Part shown: in pieces, positions 4,007 through 61,941 of the stretch
Layout of the letters: each line of letters starts with the position of its first letter
Numbering within the stretch: the stretch's first letter is position 1
Sequence record: MZ726793.1
Length of the DNA: 64,000 bases
From: Escherichia phage vB_EcoM_ASO2A
Strand: one strand, 5' to 3'
The notes under the pieces: model-generated
Told to the model about the DNA's origin: nothing
The model's database searches: none
What the model saw: only the letters and a program-made list of their open reading frames with translations
Translations under genes and position numbers: made by a program

Positions 4007-4351
4007 GTATTCTTTTTTCACGATGGAAACAACACGTAAAGAATAGGCGTAAAGGTGGCGTAAAACCATCTAAAACCGACTGTAACCGCTTAAACAAGGT
4101 AGGAATGATTAATCACCTTACCAGGATGAAAAAGCCGTTATAAAGCTATCTAGAGCGTTTAAAGCACATAGGAAATAATTTGCTTTTTATCTTGCCTTTT
4201 ACCCTGCTTTTGATTATTATTATGGAACGGGCGGCACCTGGAAGCAGGGGAAGATAATCACCGGAAGACCCCGCTATATATTGATAGCTAACATCTATCA
4301 AACAACAAAACATCAAAGAGATAAACTATCAAATCTTTACAATCCTACCTA

Positions 4352-4380
4352 TTGACACCGGATCACGCTTACATTATCAT
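4352..4380 (+). promoter_or_regulatory. sigma70-like early promoter with 5' hairpin
   Basis: TTGACA, 17 nt, TATCAT; TAGGGCGG; hairpin 4392-4410. Confidence 0.55.
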
Positions 4381-4428
4381 TTATCACGTAGGGCGGGAAT
4401 GTTTCCCGCCTGATTTAGGAGTCATATC

Positions 4429-4662
4429 ATGATCGAACAAATTAAAAGCACTAAACCAAATGTTAACGGTAATGTTTCTCACTTTATCGGGGATAATGAA
4501 AGAGGTACACCGTACGCCGCCGTAACCGTTCAACCGAACGGGGATTATTGGTTTACCGTGTACGGATCTTACTCTTTTGGACGTTCGGCACATGATAAGA
4601 TCTTGCAAGTGGTTAAGCCTACTGGGAAGAATATCACAGCAGAAAAATTTTATAAAAAATAA
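4429..4662 (+). CDS. hypothetical protein
   Basis: 77-aa ORF; SD AGGAG 7 nt upstream. Confidence 0.55.
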   Translation: MIEQIKSTKPNVNGNVSHFIGDNERGTPYAAVTVQPNGDYWFTVYGSYSFGRSAHDKILQVVKPTGKNITAEKFYKK

Positions 4663-4663
4663 C

Positions 4664-4692
4664 TTGCTTTATAGCTCCTGTTAACTTATAGT
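4664..4692 (+). promoter_or_regulatory. sigma70-like early promoter
   Basis: TTGCTT, 17 nt, TATAGT; TAGGGCGA downstream. Confidence 0.45.
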
Positions 4693-4741
4693 TATTGCGT
4701 AGGGCGAGCAATACAGCAAGCCCACAAAGAGGAAAATAAAA

Positions 4742-5110
4742 ATGAGCAAATCAGCAATTAAAGCACTTGAAAAAGCACAAGAAGTGATCGCAACGTCAAC
4801 CACTGGCGCAAAGGTTAATCTTGTTGGTTATCTGACAGATGAAACTATCCGTAAAAATTGGCGTAATGCTGATTTACTGGCTTGCTTATTGATTAATAGT
4901 GTCGCTAATGCTTTCCAGTGCGAAACAGCCGAGAGCCTGGAGGAAAACTTGTTTGATAATATGGATCAAGCCATTGAAACCTATATACAATCAAACATGG
5001 ATAGCTGGAACAGTAAAACATGGCCCGACAATTTACGCGATACAACTGATCAACTGATCCGCCTTGCCCTGATGGTTGAACGCGATAACGTTCACAACCG
5101 CACAAAGTAA
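4742..5110 (+). CDS. hypothetical protein
   Basis: 122-aa ORF; RBS AAGAGGAAAATAAAA-ATG. Confidence 0.55.
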   Translation: MSKSAIKALEKAQEVIATSTTGAKVNLVGYLTDETIRKNWRNADLLACLLINSVANAFQCETAESLEENLFDNMDQAIETYIQSNMDSWNSKTWPDNLRDTTDQLIRLALMVERDNVHNRTK

Positions 5111-5120
5111 GATTATACAA

Positions 5121-5148
5121 GGGGCGCACTAAGCGCCCTTTCTTTTTG
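5121..5148 (+). terminator. Rho-independent terminator
   Basis: GGGCGC-ACTAA-GCGCCC followed by TTTCTTTTT. Confidence 0.65.
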
Positions 5149-6659
5149 CCTAAATAATGTTGATAGATTCCGCCTATGGAAAACCGACACAGAACAAAAC
5201 TGAATAAATAGCGGTATCGAGCTAATCAACCATTAAACGAATAACCATACCTCCCAGGGTAACAGGCTGTTAGAGAGCCATTTAGAGCGGTTAAAATCGA
5301 TCAACAACCAACAACAAACCATCAAAAACACCCTTTTACCTCCTTTCTAGTGCAATGATAACCATTATCATCTATCCATGTTTATCTATGCAATATAAGT
5401 GCATAACTATAATGTTGATAATAGTTCGCAACAACTAACTAACCAACAACCTAAAACAATAAGCAAACTAATCATAATCAAAGGAATAATAGCAAGATGA
5501 TTGATAACGACAAACAATCAAACTATGATGAATACTAAGCAAGATAACGATAATACGACAAAACAACCAACTAACGAACAATAACAAACGAAACCATTAA
5601 AATAATAACTATTAGCAAAATAGTGCCTGAATGAAATCATTACAAAACGAATCATTCACAGGATCATCATTAGCACGCTATGCCGGACACATAGCGAGCT
5701 AATAATAAGCCAACTACACCCCAACAATCATAACCATCGGTGATGGTTATTTCTTGTTACTGCGTAGCTTGCAATAATTGCAAGCGTAATACGCTTACAC
5801 TTATTGCGCTGGCTTATTATTAGCATTATATGTAATTACCAAGATCATAACATTAGCGCAATAACAATAATCATTGTGGTAATTACAAGATGAAATCATT
5901 AGCAAGATGAATAATTGCACGTAGCAACATGAGCGAATAGCGACAGGTTGCATAGTGTGCACATAGATGTACACGCAGTGTATAAACATACAAGAAAATA
6001 AAGGCTAATCTTTCGGGGGCGAATACTATCGCGTAGCGATATGTTGAGCATCTTCTCTTAAACGTAAATAAAATCAGAAAATTCTTGATTTATTTTAGTT
6101 TTTATGTTAATAAACGTTTAAATAATAATCATTCTCATATAAATAATAGTCTGCTTGTCATGAGCGGGATCAGTTGACAATGTTCCGTCATATGATGAAG
6201 TTGCCAAACCATTGATAAATAAGTGTTTGTGTGATTTATAATCAAGTGGCCCACCTTGTCGCTATGTTGGCATGAGCCTTGCATAAGTCCTTGAATACGA
6301 ATGATAATTATTCTCATTCTCATGATATTTGGGAATTGTCGCTGCGTGGACCTGACGGCCCGAAAATTCGCGTTAAGCACTTCTTACGTATGCGCCATGA
6401 TTTTTGCCATATGATATTGATTCTATTAGATATTCTTGCCATGATTGCCATGAAACAGGGTGTCCCGAAATAATCTCTCCCCGTAGATATTTTGGGTTAC
6501 TTTTTATACAAGAGTGGGGTGTCAAAAATAATCGGTATATATGGGATAATTGATAGGAATCCCCTATGATAATTCGATTGTAATTCCCTGAGATTGATCG
6601 TATGATGTTGGTGATTGATGATTGCCATGAAAGATGGCTAACGATGAGAGGAGATTATC
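5141..6659. repeat. 1.5 kb non-coding A-rich region with short direct repeats
   Basis: No ORF with RBS; top strand A-rich and G-poor; repeated ATTAGCAAGATGA, GATTGCCATGAAA and ATCATTCTCAT motifs. Confidence 0.5.
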
Positions 6660-19345: not shown

Positions 19346-19765
19346 ATGTTAGGTAAGATCAAAGCTTTTTTCAAACGTATTGTTGAAGGAAGTCCAACAG
19401 AAGGTGCATTAGGAAGATCTCTAACAGGAGAACCACTTGCCATAATTTCTATCAGTCGGTATGGTGGATATTCAATTAAACAAACACCTTTAGGTATAAA
19501 AGGTAGTATGCTTTCTTGGACAATATCTCAAGTTGGTGATAACAGACTTGCAGCTATAGCATTGCTTCGTGGGGAGTATGACTATTGTTTATCAGCATCT
19601 TGTAAAAAGCACCTCATAGAGCACATTAGAGACAGAGTAGAAAGAGAAGGCGGATACTTCTTCGAAACTAAGAGAAACGAACAAGGAACTCTTGACTTCA
19701 CTAAGGTTTACTGGGACAATCATACTCGTCAAACTGTTGAACAACTTCTGGAGGAAAGATGTTAA
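19346..19765 (+). CDS. hypothetical protein
   Basis: 139-aa ORF; SD AAGGGGGG. Confidence 0.55.
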   Translation: MLGKIKAFFKRIVEGSPTEGALGRSLTGEPLAIISISRYGGYSIKQTPLGIKGSMLSWTISQVGDNRLAAIALLRGEYDYCLSASCKKHLIEHIRDRVEREGGYFFETKRNEQGTLDFTKVYWDNHTRQTVEQLLEERC

Positions 19766-19968
19766 AAGCTTTTGCTGTATACTCTACTGTAGGATTCTTT
19801 TATTGGATTATAGTTGTTGTTGGATGTTGGTTGGGTTCTTCTGTTGTGATGGGAGAATGGTTAACATACAATGTATTTGAATGGGATGTAGTTTGTAGAT
19901 CATTACTTGTTATATGGACTGCTATTGTTTGTTGGATAACTGTTAGTCTAACATTAGATCTATATTGA
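19759..19968 (+). CDS. small membrane protein (two TM segments)
   Basis: 69 aa; two hydrophobic helices; last gene before the 360 bp gap. Confidence 0.5.
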   Translation: MLKAFAVYSTVGFFYWIIVVVGCWLGSSVVMGEWLTYNVFEWDVVCRSLLVIWTAIVCWITVSLTLDLY

Positions 19969-20261
19969 TTAATAGATGGTAGATAGATGATCATAGTTTA
20001 TCTACCTTCACTTACGTTTCATACCTCACTATCGTGAGTAACATGAAACATTATTATATAGAAATCTACTACTCGCTATCGCTCGTAAACATATGTTTAG
20101 GGTACCATATTTTTTTGAAAAAGTCAATGTTGATTCACCTATCAATTATCTGTTTAAGATAAATCTTACCTATCAATCTAACTCTTAACTAGTATTGCAC
20201 CTATAGTAAGACTATTCCTATAGTTATTAACCCTCTTCTTCTGTAGAATGTAATTAGATCC

Positions 20262-20290
20262 TTGACAAACTCACAAAGCTTGTGTTACAT
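20262..20290 (+). promoter_or_regulatory. sigma70-like promoter
   Basis: TTGACA, 17 nt, TTACAT; followed by SD AGGAGGAAG and ATG 20329. Confidence 0.5.
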
Positions 20291-20328
20291 TGTGTCTCAC
20301 AAGTGAATAATACCGAACAGGAGGAAGA

Positions 20329-20544
20329 ATGAGTTCCAATTTTCTATACAAAGCAAAAGATTCACGAGATGGAGAGAACCATTGGTGGTTGATCACAGAA
20401 GATGGTGTTATCATCCTACCGTGGGACGGAGAGACGAAAGTTCAAATACTAGAGAAAGTAAAAGGTGTTAGTTTTAATGTTAGTCATGATATAACAACTT
20501 TCAAAGCTTTTGCTATGAATCCTAGTCTTGTTGCTGAATGGTAA
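20329..20544 (+). CDS. hypothetical protein
   Basis: 71-aa ORF; SD CAGGAGGAAG. Confidence 0.55.
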   Translation: MSSNFLYKAKDSRDGENHWWLITEDGVIILPWDGETKVQILEKVKGVSFNVSHDITTFKAFAMNPSLVAEW

Positions 20545-20557
20545 TCCAGGAGAAGAT

Positions 20558-20776
20558 ATGACTAAAATGTATGCAGCCGTTGATAAGCTGGATGGGTCTG
20601 ATTCTGTTTTTATTTTGAATAAAATGGGTGTCTTAGTTTATGCCCGAACTTCTCAAAACATAGAGCACCAAGTGGAAGCAGCACAAATTTTAGAGCAAAT
20701 AACCCCTCCATACCTATACTCAAATGTTGAGCGTTTTAACGATGCACTTGGTTTGACGTTAATAGCGGAATGGTAA
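20558..20776 (+). CDS. hypothetical protein
   Basis: 72 aa from ATG 20558; SD AGGAG; C-terminal AEW like the preceding ORF. Confidence 0.5.
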   Translation: MTKMYAAVDKLDGSDSVFILNKMGVLVYARTSQNIEHQVEAAQILEQITPPYLYSNVERFNDALGLTLIAEW

Positions 20777-40534: not shown

Positions 40535-40741
40535 TTAAAGCTCCTCAATCTTTTCTAACATCTGTTTTAACTCATTCTCTGTTAACAGAATTTCTGTGAT
40601 ACCATCATAAGTTTCTACCATCAGAGTAAAACATTTTTCCCCATCTGAACACACAAAAGCGCCACCTTCATCTTCTGTTAAGTCAGAATTAATATCTACA
40701 TCACCAAAATCAATCATCTTTTTCTCCTTTGATAATTTCAA
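40535..40741 (-). CDS. hypothetical protein
   Basis: 68-aa ORF. Confidence 0.5.
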   Translation of the reverse strand: MKLSKEKKMIDFGDVDINSDLTEDEGGAFVCSDGEKCFTLMVETYDGITEILLTENELKQMLEKIEEL

Positions 40742-59699: not shown

Positions 59700-59952
59700 T
59701 CTAGCCTCCTAAACGCGTCTCTGACGCACTTTTATATATAAGATGATAAATCACCTTACCTAGTAAGTAAACTTGCTCTACAGCCTCTTATGAAGCTTAT
59801 GTTATAGGCTATACTATTGCTACCTGTTTAAGCAAGGTTTTTGCACACAGAAAATAATTTTTAATAAAACTCTTGACTTTTGTGTTCGAAGTATGCTACC
59901 CTAGAAATCTATTAACGAGCGCAGCGAGTTAAGGTTTTAGGTTGGTGATGTA

Positions 59953-59985
59953 GTACTCTGTACTCAAGTACTGTACTCCGTACTA
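59953..59985. repeat. Five tandem GTACT(C) iteron-like repeats
   Basis: GTACTC, GTACTC, GTACT, GTACTCC, GTACTA within 33 bp. Confidence 0.6.
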
Positions 59986-60030
59986 GATTAATAATTATTA
60001 AATATTAATAATAAATAATTATTAGATCTA
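59986..60030. repeat. AT-rich palindromic tract
   Basis: TTAATAATTATTAA palindrome and TAATAATAAATAATTATTA, essentially pure A/T. Confidence 0.55.
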
Positions 60031-60117
60031 ACAAACAGGTACAGTGTATCAGAACTGGTACGTACAGATCAACTTCTATCAATTAAAAATAAAATAATAA
60101 ATTATTATAAATAATAC

Positions 60118-60146
60118 TTGATCTATAGATTAGTATGAAGTACAGT
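60118..60146 (+). promoter_or_regulatory. sigma70-like promoter
   Basis: TTGATC, 17 nt, TACAGT; then SD GGAGGTG and ATG 60179. Confidence 0.45.
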
Positions 60147-60178
60147 ACGAAACATCTTAACAAGAATGGAGGTGTGCA

Positions 60179-60364
60179 ATGATTAGTGAGAATCCGTGCA
60201 AATGGCATCATGTGCCTATTAAAGATTGTATGTCTTGTAATCCACGTTCTATTTATAACATTGCATCTTATGATGATGACAATGTGTTAGACGATGATGA
60301 AGGCTGGGAGGATTTAGATTGGACTGGTTATGAAACCAAAAAGGATAAAATTATTCCTAGTTGA
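60179..60364 (+). CDS. hypothetical protein
   Basis: 61-aa ORF; SD GGAGGTG. Confidence 0.5.
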   Translation: MISENPCKWHHVPIKDCMSCNPRSIYNIASYDDDNVLDDDEGWEDLDWTGYETKKDKIIPS

Positions 60365-61853: not shown

Positions 61854-61941
61854 GGTGAGTTAATTCCGTAGGGGTAGCGGGGCAGACTGTAAATCTGTTA
61901 TCATTGCGATTCGGGTGGTTCGACTCCATCACTCACCACCA
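61854..61941 (+). tRNA. tRNA-Tyr (anticodon GTA), long variable arm
   Basis: Acceptor GGTGAGT/ACTCACC, GCAGA-CTGTAAA-TCTGT as in E. coli tRNA-Tyr, CCA. Confidence 0.8.

Follow-up and report, generated by a model that had tools for sequence, protein, structure and literature searches.

A conserved promoter-like module read leftward in an early intergenic gap of phAPEC8-like phages

The gap and its minus-strand module

We analysed a stretch of 64,000 nt (record MZ726793.1; hereafter the window) from Escherichia phage vB_EcoM_ASO2A, a phAPEC8-like phage (Phapecoctavirus, Stephanstirmvirinae), and more specifically an unannotated gap of 360 bp, 19969-20328, flanked by two open reading frames (ORFs) of the + strand. 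A reading of this DNA made from the letters alone (the sequence-only reading) had described in the gap an inverted repeat, a nested hairpin and four CCTAT(C/A) repeats preceding a rightward promoter at 20262. It had overlooked the minus-strand reading of 20035-20128, which is the most conserved stretch of the gap. On this strand, positions 20072-20127 carry a module with the structure TTGACT-17 nt-TGgTACCCTA, 12 nt, CGAGCG-AT-AGCGAG, i.e., a predicted sigma70-type promoter directed leftward, followed by a short box that could fold as a mini-hairpin. The flanking ORFs, the elements of the module and the repeats located behind it are the following:

19759..19968, + strand: upstream ORF, 69 aa, membrane-like (stop codon 19966-19968)
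20072..20085, - strand: box CGAGCG-AT-AGCGAG, at ~+8 to +21 of the predicted leftward transcript
~20092, - strand: predicted leftward start, placed by spacing only
20099..20107, - strand: extended -10 element TGgTACCCT (hexamer 20104..20099, TG 20107..20106)
20122..20127, - strand: -35 element TTGACT, 17 nt from the -10, a 5/6 match to TTGACA
20138..20146, - strand: proximal 9-mer ATTGATAGG (CCTATCAAT on the + strand), ending 10 nt upstream of the leftward -35
20169..20177, - strand: second copy of ATTGATAGG, 31 bp farther upstream of the leftward promoter
20329..20544, + strand: downstream ORF, 71 aa

A sensitive BLAST search of the gap against 50,697 phage records recovered full-length matches in close relatives only; the region 19700-20600 is 99.9% identical in Escherichia phage SKA64. 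In Justusliebigvirus, the KP13-26-like Klebsiella phages and Citrobacter phage Tr1, the match was confined to 20035-20128, at ~79%. The alignment of the relatives revealed the invariant blocks ACTCGCT(A)TCGCTCG and TAGGGTA(G/C)CAT, a T run, and AAAAGTCAA. Phages phiWec179 and PsgM04F keep this core, two hairpins (H1 and H2, described below) and both copies of ACCTATCAAT, the + strand repeat that contains the 9-mer; divergence is total beyond, and the 20262 promoter is missing.

We assembled a family of 25 distinct members of the module from phage records, IMG/VR and metagenomes, a small set drawn from related phages. Pattern scans of IMG/VR and metagenomes contributed ~15 extra members, kept after requiring the -35 and TGn, most other matches being due to chance or to unrelated hairpin repeats; a scan of IMG/VR for further close relatives recovered one contig only. 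TGn and TACCCTA were invariant (25/25), and the spacer between the -35 and TACCCT measured 17-18 nt in all members. The -35 variants (TTGACT, TTGACA, TTTACT, TTGATT and TTGGCA, all with at least 4/6 consensus positions) are those expected of a genuine -35 element. Such conserved hexamers, together with the TG and a free spacer, have the look of a sigma70 extended -10 promoter, from which we infer that the module is active as a promoter. What is unusual is the CCC of its -10, which never varies. The more general architecture TTGAC-N16-18-TGn-TAnnnT was found at 28 sites of the genome, 24 of them co-oriented with the local genes, the 20262 promoter being one of the 28.

The module had no match in 5,426 E. 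coli genomes, and a host origin was therefore rejected. Literature searches for the module motif and for transcription maps of Stephanstirmvirinae returned nothing. The module could represent a conserved promoter class, absent from the searched literature, in which the hairpin close to the promoter is invariant and one conserved member is antisense.

In the same scans, ~30 marine IMG/VR or metagenome contigs (L078, L080, L083, L100, L166 and about 25 more) contained inverted pairs TACCCTATCCCCCCC(A/T)ACGAGCGAAGCGAG separated by ~110 nt. These pairs have TACCCTA and the box in common with the phage module, lack a -35 or TG, and are probably an unrelated repeat family caught by the search pattern.

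The box itself can pair as C.G, G.A, A.G, G.C and C.G, closed by G-N(1-2)-A (here G-AT-A). No variation was seen in its 12 stem and closing bases across 20 distinct contexts; the loop varies among these contexts (A, C, AT, GG and, once, TCT, through a 3-nt insert in L189). The pair adjoining the box is CG in 10 contexts, AU in 7 and another in 3, and 90% of the cells are paired overall. The covariation score of the flanks was 0.364, compared with 0.150 in shuffles (0/500 reached the observed value) and 0.05-0.125 when the partners were slid, keeping in mind that counts made on related sequences may be inflated by shared ancestry. Flank pairs 2-3 included 12 G.T and 0 A.C; the folding strand is therefore the one that carries the box, either as leftward transcript or as non-template DNA strand. 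This covariation supports the existence of some hairpin on the box strand. The imperfect hairpin of the box is widespread outside phages: in soil metagenome loci (L057, L072, L073, L075, L095, L150, etc.), CGAGCG-N-AGCGAG with complementary arms of 4-6 bp (GTCATTCCGAGCGAAGCGAGGAATC and variants) recurs as a hairpin repeat in unrelated contigs, at times in tandem.

Three copies per genome and the repeats of the gap

We searched the complete genome of the annotated relative PNJ1809-36, assembled from five pieces, with an nhmmer profile of the module. Exactly three copies were detected (E 2e-17, 2e-16 and 2e-14), the next match having an E of 1.6:

20072-20127 of the window, - strand: copy A, in the gap, leftward, against + genes on both sides
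59873..59928 of the window, + strand: copy B, TTGACT-18 nt-TGcTACCCTA, 12 nt, CGAGCG-C-AGCGAG, in a divergent intergenic region
31058-31003 of PNJ1809-36, - strand: copy C, in a 170-nt gap of the long block of minus-strand genes that leads to the replication genes

Copy B aims at the first + gene (~60181) and the tRNA cluster/structural block. Copy C is located ~1.7 kb inside the start of the minus-strand block, co-oriented with it and ~115 nt upstream of the next gene. Types B and C head long gene blocks (tRNA/structural and replication) and are placed where a promoter would be needed, in the orientation of the genes. The same three types were recovered in Justusliebigvirus PD06 (L021 = A, L017 = B, L028 = C), in a KP13-26-like contig (L013, L177, L027) and in a phiWec-like contig (L037, L200, L014), the type of some metagenomic fragments being assigned from ORF orientation alone. 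Type A had opposite-strand ORFs on both sides in 7/7 distinct cases (the window, phiWec179/PsgM04F, KP13-26, L013, Tr1, PD06 and L120), and this antisense orientation persists though the neighbouring genes have been shuffled between lineages. The presence of the invariant hairpin in A, B and C suggests a common recognising factor.

The leaders of the other two types have features of their own. That of copy B (59929-60180) contains a set of five GTACT(C) repeats (~59950-59985), two tracts made only of A/T (the longest of 38 nt) and the motif GATCTAACA, which other genera also have in their type-B leaders; just ahead of the ~60181 gene there is a second promoter-like site, TTGATC-17 nt-TACAGT. 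This leader looks origin-like, and equally could be an upstream promoter element. In the type-C leader of the phiWec-like contig (L014 / L065), the -10 sequence is repeated as a hairpin, TTACCCTCCCGTTAGGGTAGAGGGTAG, ~20-50 nt past the box, and the next segment, TCTATCGTTAGAT...GAAGAACAG...CTTGTTCTT, is conserved between this contig and copy C of PNJ1809-36.

The four CCTAT(C/A) copies reported in the gap are present on the + strand (starts 20138, 20169, 20200 and 20217). They form two pairs, ACCTATCAAT occurring twice, 31 bp apart (20137, 20168), and CCTATAGT twice, 17 bp apart (20200, 20217). Across the whole window, the hexamer shows no enrichment (35 seen vs 44 expected). Four same-strand copies within 90 bp were obtained in 0/500 dinucleotide-preserving shuffles (the maximum was 3, in 7 shuffles), a generous figure since the statistic is post hoc, the motif having been picked after inspection of the sequence.

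The two pairs differed in their conservation. Both ACCTATCAAT copies and their 31-bp spacing were kept in phiWec179 and PsgM04F (~82% identical here); the second ATTGATAGG copy was not seen in lineages beyond these two. Both CCTATAGT copies were mutated in phage ukendt, 94% identical overall (CCCATAGT, CTTATGGT), and absent in phiWec179; from the ukendt mutations, the distal copies are therefore unconstrained. The conservation in relatives and the role as regulator sites envisaged for all four repeats are hence supported for the proximal pair, which behaves like a protein-binding site in its conserved sequence and spacing, and fail for the distal one.

The 9-mer ended exactly 10 nt upstream of the leftward -35 in 7/7 distinct type-A elements from several lineages, in the forms ATTGATAGG, ATTAATAGG, AACGATAGG, ATTAATCGG and ATCAATCGG. 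Its consensus, A-[T/A/C]-[T/C]-[G/A]-A-T-[A/C]-G-G, is the reverse complement of CCTATCAAT, which ties the repeat to the leftward promoter; given this fixed distance, the assignment of the repeats to the 20262 promoter in the sequence-only reading is not supported. The 9-mer is absent in types B and C, where A/T-rich sequence occupies that position instead. Its fixed position suggests a DNA-binding regulator specific for type A, of which the 9-mer is likely the binding site. Readings of CCTATCAAT as an IHF site, a DnaA box or a tetO-like operator, made by eye only, were rejected because the second half-sites or TTR positions misfit.

The other features of the gap, most of them on the + strand, are:

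19978-20006, + strand: hairpin H1, an 11-bp stem just past the stop codon of the 69-aa gene
20016-20049, strand ambiguous: hairpin H2, outer 7-bp stem GTTTCAT/ATGAAAC and inner 5-bp stem CTCAC/GTGAG
20075-20116, + strand: terminator-like alternative fold, GCUAUC (20075-20080) pairing with GGUACC (20101-20106), then AUA and U7
20200-20207 and 20217-20224, + strand: two distal CCTATAGT copies, not conserved
20262..20291, + strand: rightward sigma70-type promoter of the 71-aa gene, TTGACA-18 nt-TGtTACATT, 10/12 positions
20320-20324, + strand: ribosome-binding site GGAGG, ahead of the ATG at 20329

The inverted repeat GGTAGATA/TATCTACC (19978-19985 / 19999-20006) noticed in the sequence-only reading is indeed the core of H1. 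Folded as + strand RNA, H1 reached -15.0 kcal/mol (z -3.95), a value equalled by 0/200 shuffles, vs -9.8 kcal/mol on the - strand; the corresponding values in phiWec179 were -15.6 and -10.1. The + strand is favoured because G.U pairs turn into A.C mismatches on the other strand. H1 is not followed by a U-tract and was not listed by the terminator scan; all the same, it probably serves the upstream operon as its 3' hairpin. The nested hairpin announced around 20018-20060 exists as H2, with a somewhat narrower extent. H2 folded at -11.8 kcal/mol on the + strand (z -3.2) and -14.6 on the - strand, and likewise had no U-tract and no listing in the terminator scan. Its outer stem shows two compensatory changes relative to phiWec179 (G.C -> A.T; T.A -> G.C). 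The other type-A copies also have a hairpin 20-45 nt past the box, often with an H2-like TTCATG/CATGAA stem.

The alternative fold corresponds to the complement of the module. It encloses an AAACAU/AUGUUU stem, its U7 tract being located at 20110-20116. In most family members, the equivalent GCUAUC/GGUAGC fold is the minimum-energy structure and is followed by AUG and U6-7. The clade of the window has a C.C mismatch in this stem (GGGTACC, not GGGTAGC), which leaves a weak fold of -5.9 kcal/mol; 3 nt separate the interrupted stem from the U7 tract, and the structure was absent from the terminator scan list. Attenuation of rightward read-through is a possible role for this fold.

At 20262, the rightward promoter is present as had been described, a sigma70-type site whose -10 is preceded by a TG. 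Its conservation extends to phAPEC8 and ukendt, i.e., to close relatives only; phiWec179 and PsgM04F have other sequence in its place, and KP13-26 and Tr1 have no room for it.

Interpretation, rival explanations and known systems

We tentatively favour, with a confidence somewhat short of even, the explanation that an operon boundary of the early block lies in the gap, built round a regulated leftward (antisense) promoter module of sigma70 type. Rightward early transcripts would end or be stabilised at H1 and H2, perhaps at the U7-tailed complement fold. Host RNA polymerase would initiate leftward at ~20092, controlled by a protein bound to the 9-mers, and the resulting non-coding transcript would carry the box hairpin first, then H2 and H1, and enter the 3' end of the early operon in antisense direction, where it would work by antisense or interference. 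A protein common to all three units would recognise the invariant hairpin and, in this species, the separate promoter at 20262 would restart transcription of the downstream genes. The sequence-only reading had proposed that the gap marks an early-to-middle switch with regulator sites or a small RNA; a regulatory boundary inside the early gene block is supported by our results, and a non-coding RNA starting in the gap is plausible from the sequence.

Several observations weigh against a leftward promoter. We found neither a gene nor a recognisable terminator downstream for the leftward transcript. The hexamer TACCCT, which retains T-12, A-11 and T-7, matches TATAAT at 3/6 positions and was not called by the consensus scan. 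Every type-A copy has a T run of 6-7 on the + strand, within the promoter spacer, which is better explained by the + strand reading. The nearest-neighbour energy models gave no signal for the box hairpin (z about 0), GCGNAGC-type motifs being absent from the standard energy parameters, and the bare cores GCGNAGC and GCGNNAGC occur in the genome at chance frequency (27 and 37 seen, ~26 expected). A short palindrome between the -10 and the box, rejected as a general hairpin since it was significant in 5/20 members only, would be just half transcribed, a feature outside the account of a promoter model. The possible effect of shared ancestry on the covariation counts, mentioned above, has to be added to these points.

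The same + strand features are the basis of a rival explanation that we consider unlikely, in which the module is a terminator or attenuator of the rightward early operon and its promoter look is secondary, or the element is bifunctional. The GCUAUC/GGUAGC fold (-8 to -16 kcal/mol in the members where it is the minimum-energy structure), the T run directly after it in every type-A copy and often missing in type B, the small palindrome, which would be accounted for, and the + strand preference of H1 all agree with it. It leaves unexplained the conservation of TTGACT 17-18 nt away and of TGn, the covariation of the box flanks, and the placement of types B and C, in which the complementary strand is not the gene strand. 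In the clade of the window, the C.C mismatch of the outer stem is uncompensated, with the weakened fold, the 3-nt distance to the U-tract and the silence of the terminator scan noted above. Finally, the next + gene of KP13-26 and Tr1 has no room for its own promoter, and read-through of the site must therefore occur. The original proposal, with the CCTAT(C/A) repeats as operators of the 20262 promoter and the rest of the gap as spacer and terminator, appears quite improbable. The repeat cluster is above chance and has a good extended -10 promoter 40-125 nt downstream of it, but the two copies nearest to that promoter are unconserved even within the genus (ukendt), phiWec179 and PsgM04F keep the two proximal repeats without the 20262 promoter and, across lineages, the distance of the repeat is fixed to the leftward -35 and not to any rightward promoter. 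We give almost no credence to a third view, that the gap encodes phAPEC8_0059, a small protein of 39 aa (20043-20162, + strand) that the records of phAPEC8, BI-EHEC and others annotate: the phiWec179 frame is ATG CAA TAA, every GGGTAGC member hits a TAG, and the frame is open here only through the clade-specific GGGTACC, without a convincing ribosome-binding site. The frame being broken in relatives, the element is therefore not coding.

Two further alternatives concern the three modules together. They could be transcription-primed replication origins, the displaced strand of an R-loop folding into a GCGNAGC-type mini-hairpin that would signal priming or helicase loading, a possibility to which we attach a low probability. 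Gene orientation would be irrelevant to such a function, in agreement with the antisense copy, and mini-hairpins of this type are found at the complementary-strand origins of G4, St-1 and alpha3 and at RSF1010 ssiA (PMC13037366). Copy B is followed by repeats and the 38-nt pure A/T tract, and the type-A copy of KP13-26 by A/T-rich tandem repeats. Against this, copies A and C lack an unwinding element (longest A/T runs 11 and 8 nt; first 100 nt 70% A+T vs 61% for the genome), and the A/T tract of copy B, directly upstream of the second promoter-like site, could be an upstream promoter element. All three types are kept as orthologues in every lineage, which argues against redundancy, and the G.T wobble pairs of the flanks are more typical of RNA. 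Promoter-dependent phage origins, such as T4 oriF/oriG and the T7 primary origin, consist of a promoter followed by an A/T-rich region; such a region is present past the promoter in copy B and lacking in copies A and C. An iteron-type origin, taken as at least three direct repeats of 17-22 bp with an A/T-rich unwinding element and an initiator gene, did not fit the gap, with its two conserved repeats of 9-10 nt only and a longest nearby A/T run of 11 nt. The box could also be a generic 5' stem-loop acting against 5'-end-dependent decay, with no specific partner, the gap copy being a decaying duplicate. The early promoters of the phage indeed also have hairpins at ~+10 to +30, and the box would sit 2-8 nt from the predicted 5' end. 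Nevertheless, a generic hairpin would drift with compensatory changes, as those of the early promoters do; here 12 bases, two G.A mismatches among them, stay unchanged through 20 contexts that span lineages and the three paralogues, and the antisense copy with its own 9-mer is retained in every lineage, so that we regard this role as very unlikely.

Among known systems, the nearest functional analogues of the leftward promoter module would be nut/put, ops/RfaH, N4 promoter hairpins and phage antisense RNAs. Its -35 TTGACT, 17-18 nt spacer, TGn at -15/-14, A at -11 and T at -7 are those of E. coli sigma70 extended -10 promoters; unlike these, its -10 is an invariant TACCCT with a G+C-rich centre, always followed by the same hairpin. 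The ops element recognised by RfaH is a non-template-strand DNA hairpin in the leaders of long operons (PMC5995543). The module similarly has a GCG-NN-AGC hairpin on the non-template strand near the promoter of very long units (copies B and C), and GCGATAGCGAG of the module matches ops GCGGTAGCGTG at 9/11 positions. However, the two differences are G5 -> A and T11 -> A, and G5A abolishes RfaH recruitment, T11G being among the strongest defects (PMC5995543). In the 12-nt ops consensus GGCGGTAGnnTG, G5 and T6 are in the loop; the gap box GAGCGATAGCGAG has A at position 5, and A-G in place of the pause T11-G12. The loop of the module also differs among copies (AT, C, A, GG), that of copy B having one base, and no operon lies downstream of the gap copy. 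The genome contains no strict ops, which together with the G5 and T11 mismatches ruled out the box as a canonical ops site.

Mini-hairpins of the GCGNAGC / GCGNNAGC type occur at the complementary-strand origins and ssiA cited above and in the promoters of the N4 virion RNA polymerase (PMC13037366). The box core GCG-N(1-2)-AGC has this motif (GCGATAGC in copies A and C, GCGCAGC in copy B) and is located in the predicted transcription initiation region, but it forms part of a longer invariant stem that has tandem G.A pairs. Unlike in N4, it stands downstream of a sigma70-type promoter instead of being the promoter, and no N4-like polymerase is annotated in these phages. As with lambda nut (boxA/boxB) and HK022 put, there are few copies per genome, just downstream of a major promoter, with a purine-rich hairpin loop that could modify the elongating polymerase. 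The module differs from nut in having no boxB similarity, no identified N-like protein and one copy without downstream genes. A lambda or rrn boxA element was rejected, no CGCTCTTA-like sequence being found within 200-280 nt downstream of copies A and B with 2 mismatches allowed. Finally, the gap copy is comparable to phage cis-antisense RNAs (lambda oop, P22 sar) as a small promoter directed against the flanking operon at a gene boundary; it differs from them in lacking a defined terminator or an overlap with a ribosome-binding site, and the same promoter and leader also head two sense units.

In a more speculative idea, in which we have little confidence, the box, as RNA or non-template DNA, could be the loading site of a phage or host elongation-control factor, a functional analogue of nut or ops. 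This factor would switch on the replication and the tRNA/structural blocks and, at the early-to-middle transition, send a termination-resistant antisense transcript that would silence the early operon.

Phages of the phAPEC8 and Justusliebigvirus groups are widely isolated and used in phage-therapy cocktails, and a three-copy module conserved through extensive gene shuffling offers a handle on the timing of their gene expression. The module predicts three start sites, one antisense RNA and at least two nucleic-acid-binding proteins, specific for the 9-mer and for the hairpin, respectively. Recruitment of an elongation factor by the hairpin, if true, would represent a new read-out of a small non-template or leader hairpin, distinct from the RfaH and N systems; if the module is no more than a promoter, it would still be useful for annotation. 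The analysis also removes a spurious ORF, phAPEC8_0059, from the records.

Surrounding genes and other observations

According to the annotation of PNJ1809-36, the first ~23.4 kb of the window consist of small + strand genes of unknown function. This early block is followed by a long - strand block of nucleotide metabolism, the divergent intergenic region (~59.7-60.2 kb) and + strand tRNAs. The proteins flanking the gap had no functional match in Pfam or PHROG. An antisense ORF of 64 aa (19994..19800) was discarded as the mirror of the hydrophobic + strand gene, which is translationally coupled to its upstream neighbour.

A second promoter class, TTGACA-16 nt-TGn-TAAnAT, was observed in the window at ~226, 1754 and 4353 (in PNJ1809-36 at 40604, 40966, 42042, 45592, 46745 and 48273). 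Each of these promoters has a G+C-rich hairpin at ~+10 to +30 whose stem sequence differs from one to another (GCGGGAA...TTCCCGC; GCGGCA...TGCCGC). They are probably strong early promoters with 5' stem-loops.

The region 5200-5700, part of a non-coding stretch (~5110-5890), comprises ~500 nt without ORF and with a strong strand asymmetry, the + strand being rich in A and C (GC skew to -0.45, AT skew to +0.46). The PNJ1809-36 record is unannotated from 4273 to 5848, yet ORFs with ribosome-binding sites are visible at ~4430-4660 and ~4743-5110.

No tRNA or known RNA family was detected in the gap by ARAGORN or by Rfam (at E up to 10 and at gathering thresholds). The ARAGORN tRNAs of the window were confined to 61-63 kb. 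Rfam added an eleventh tRNA at 61854-61938 (39 bits), not reported by ARAGORN; at the matching position of the array, immediately before tRNA-Asn, PNJ1809-36 has an annotated tRNA-Tyr.

In the comparison of 19700-20600, Pseudomonas phage PsgM04F reached ~83% identity only. Records labelled as Campylobacter, Acinetobacter and Klebsiella phages matched the same region at 98-99% identity; such near-identical records under other host names suggest mislabelled hosts or contaminant phages.

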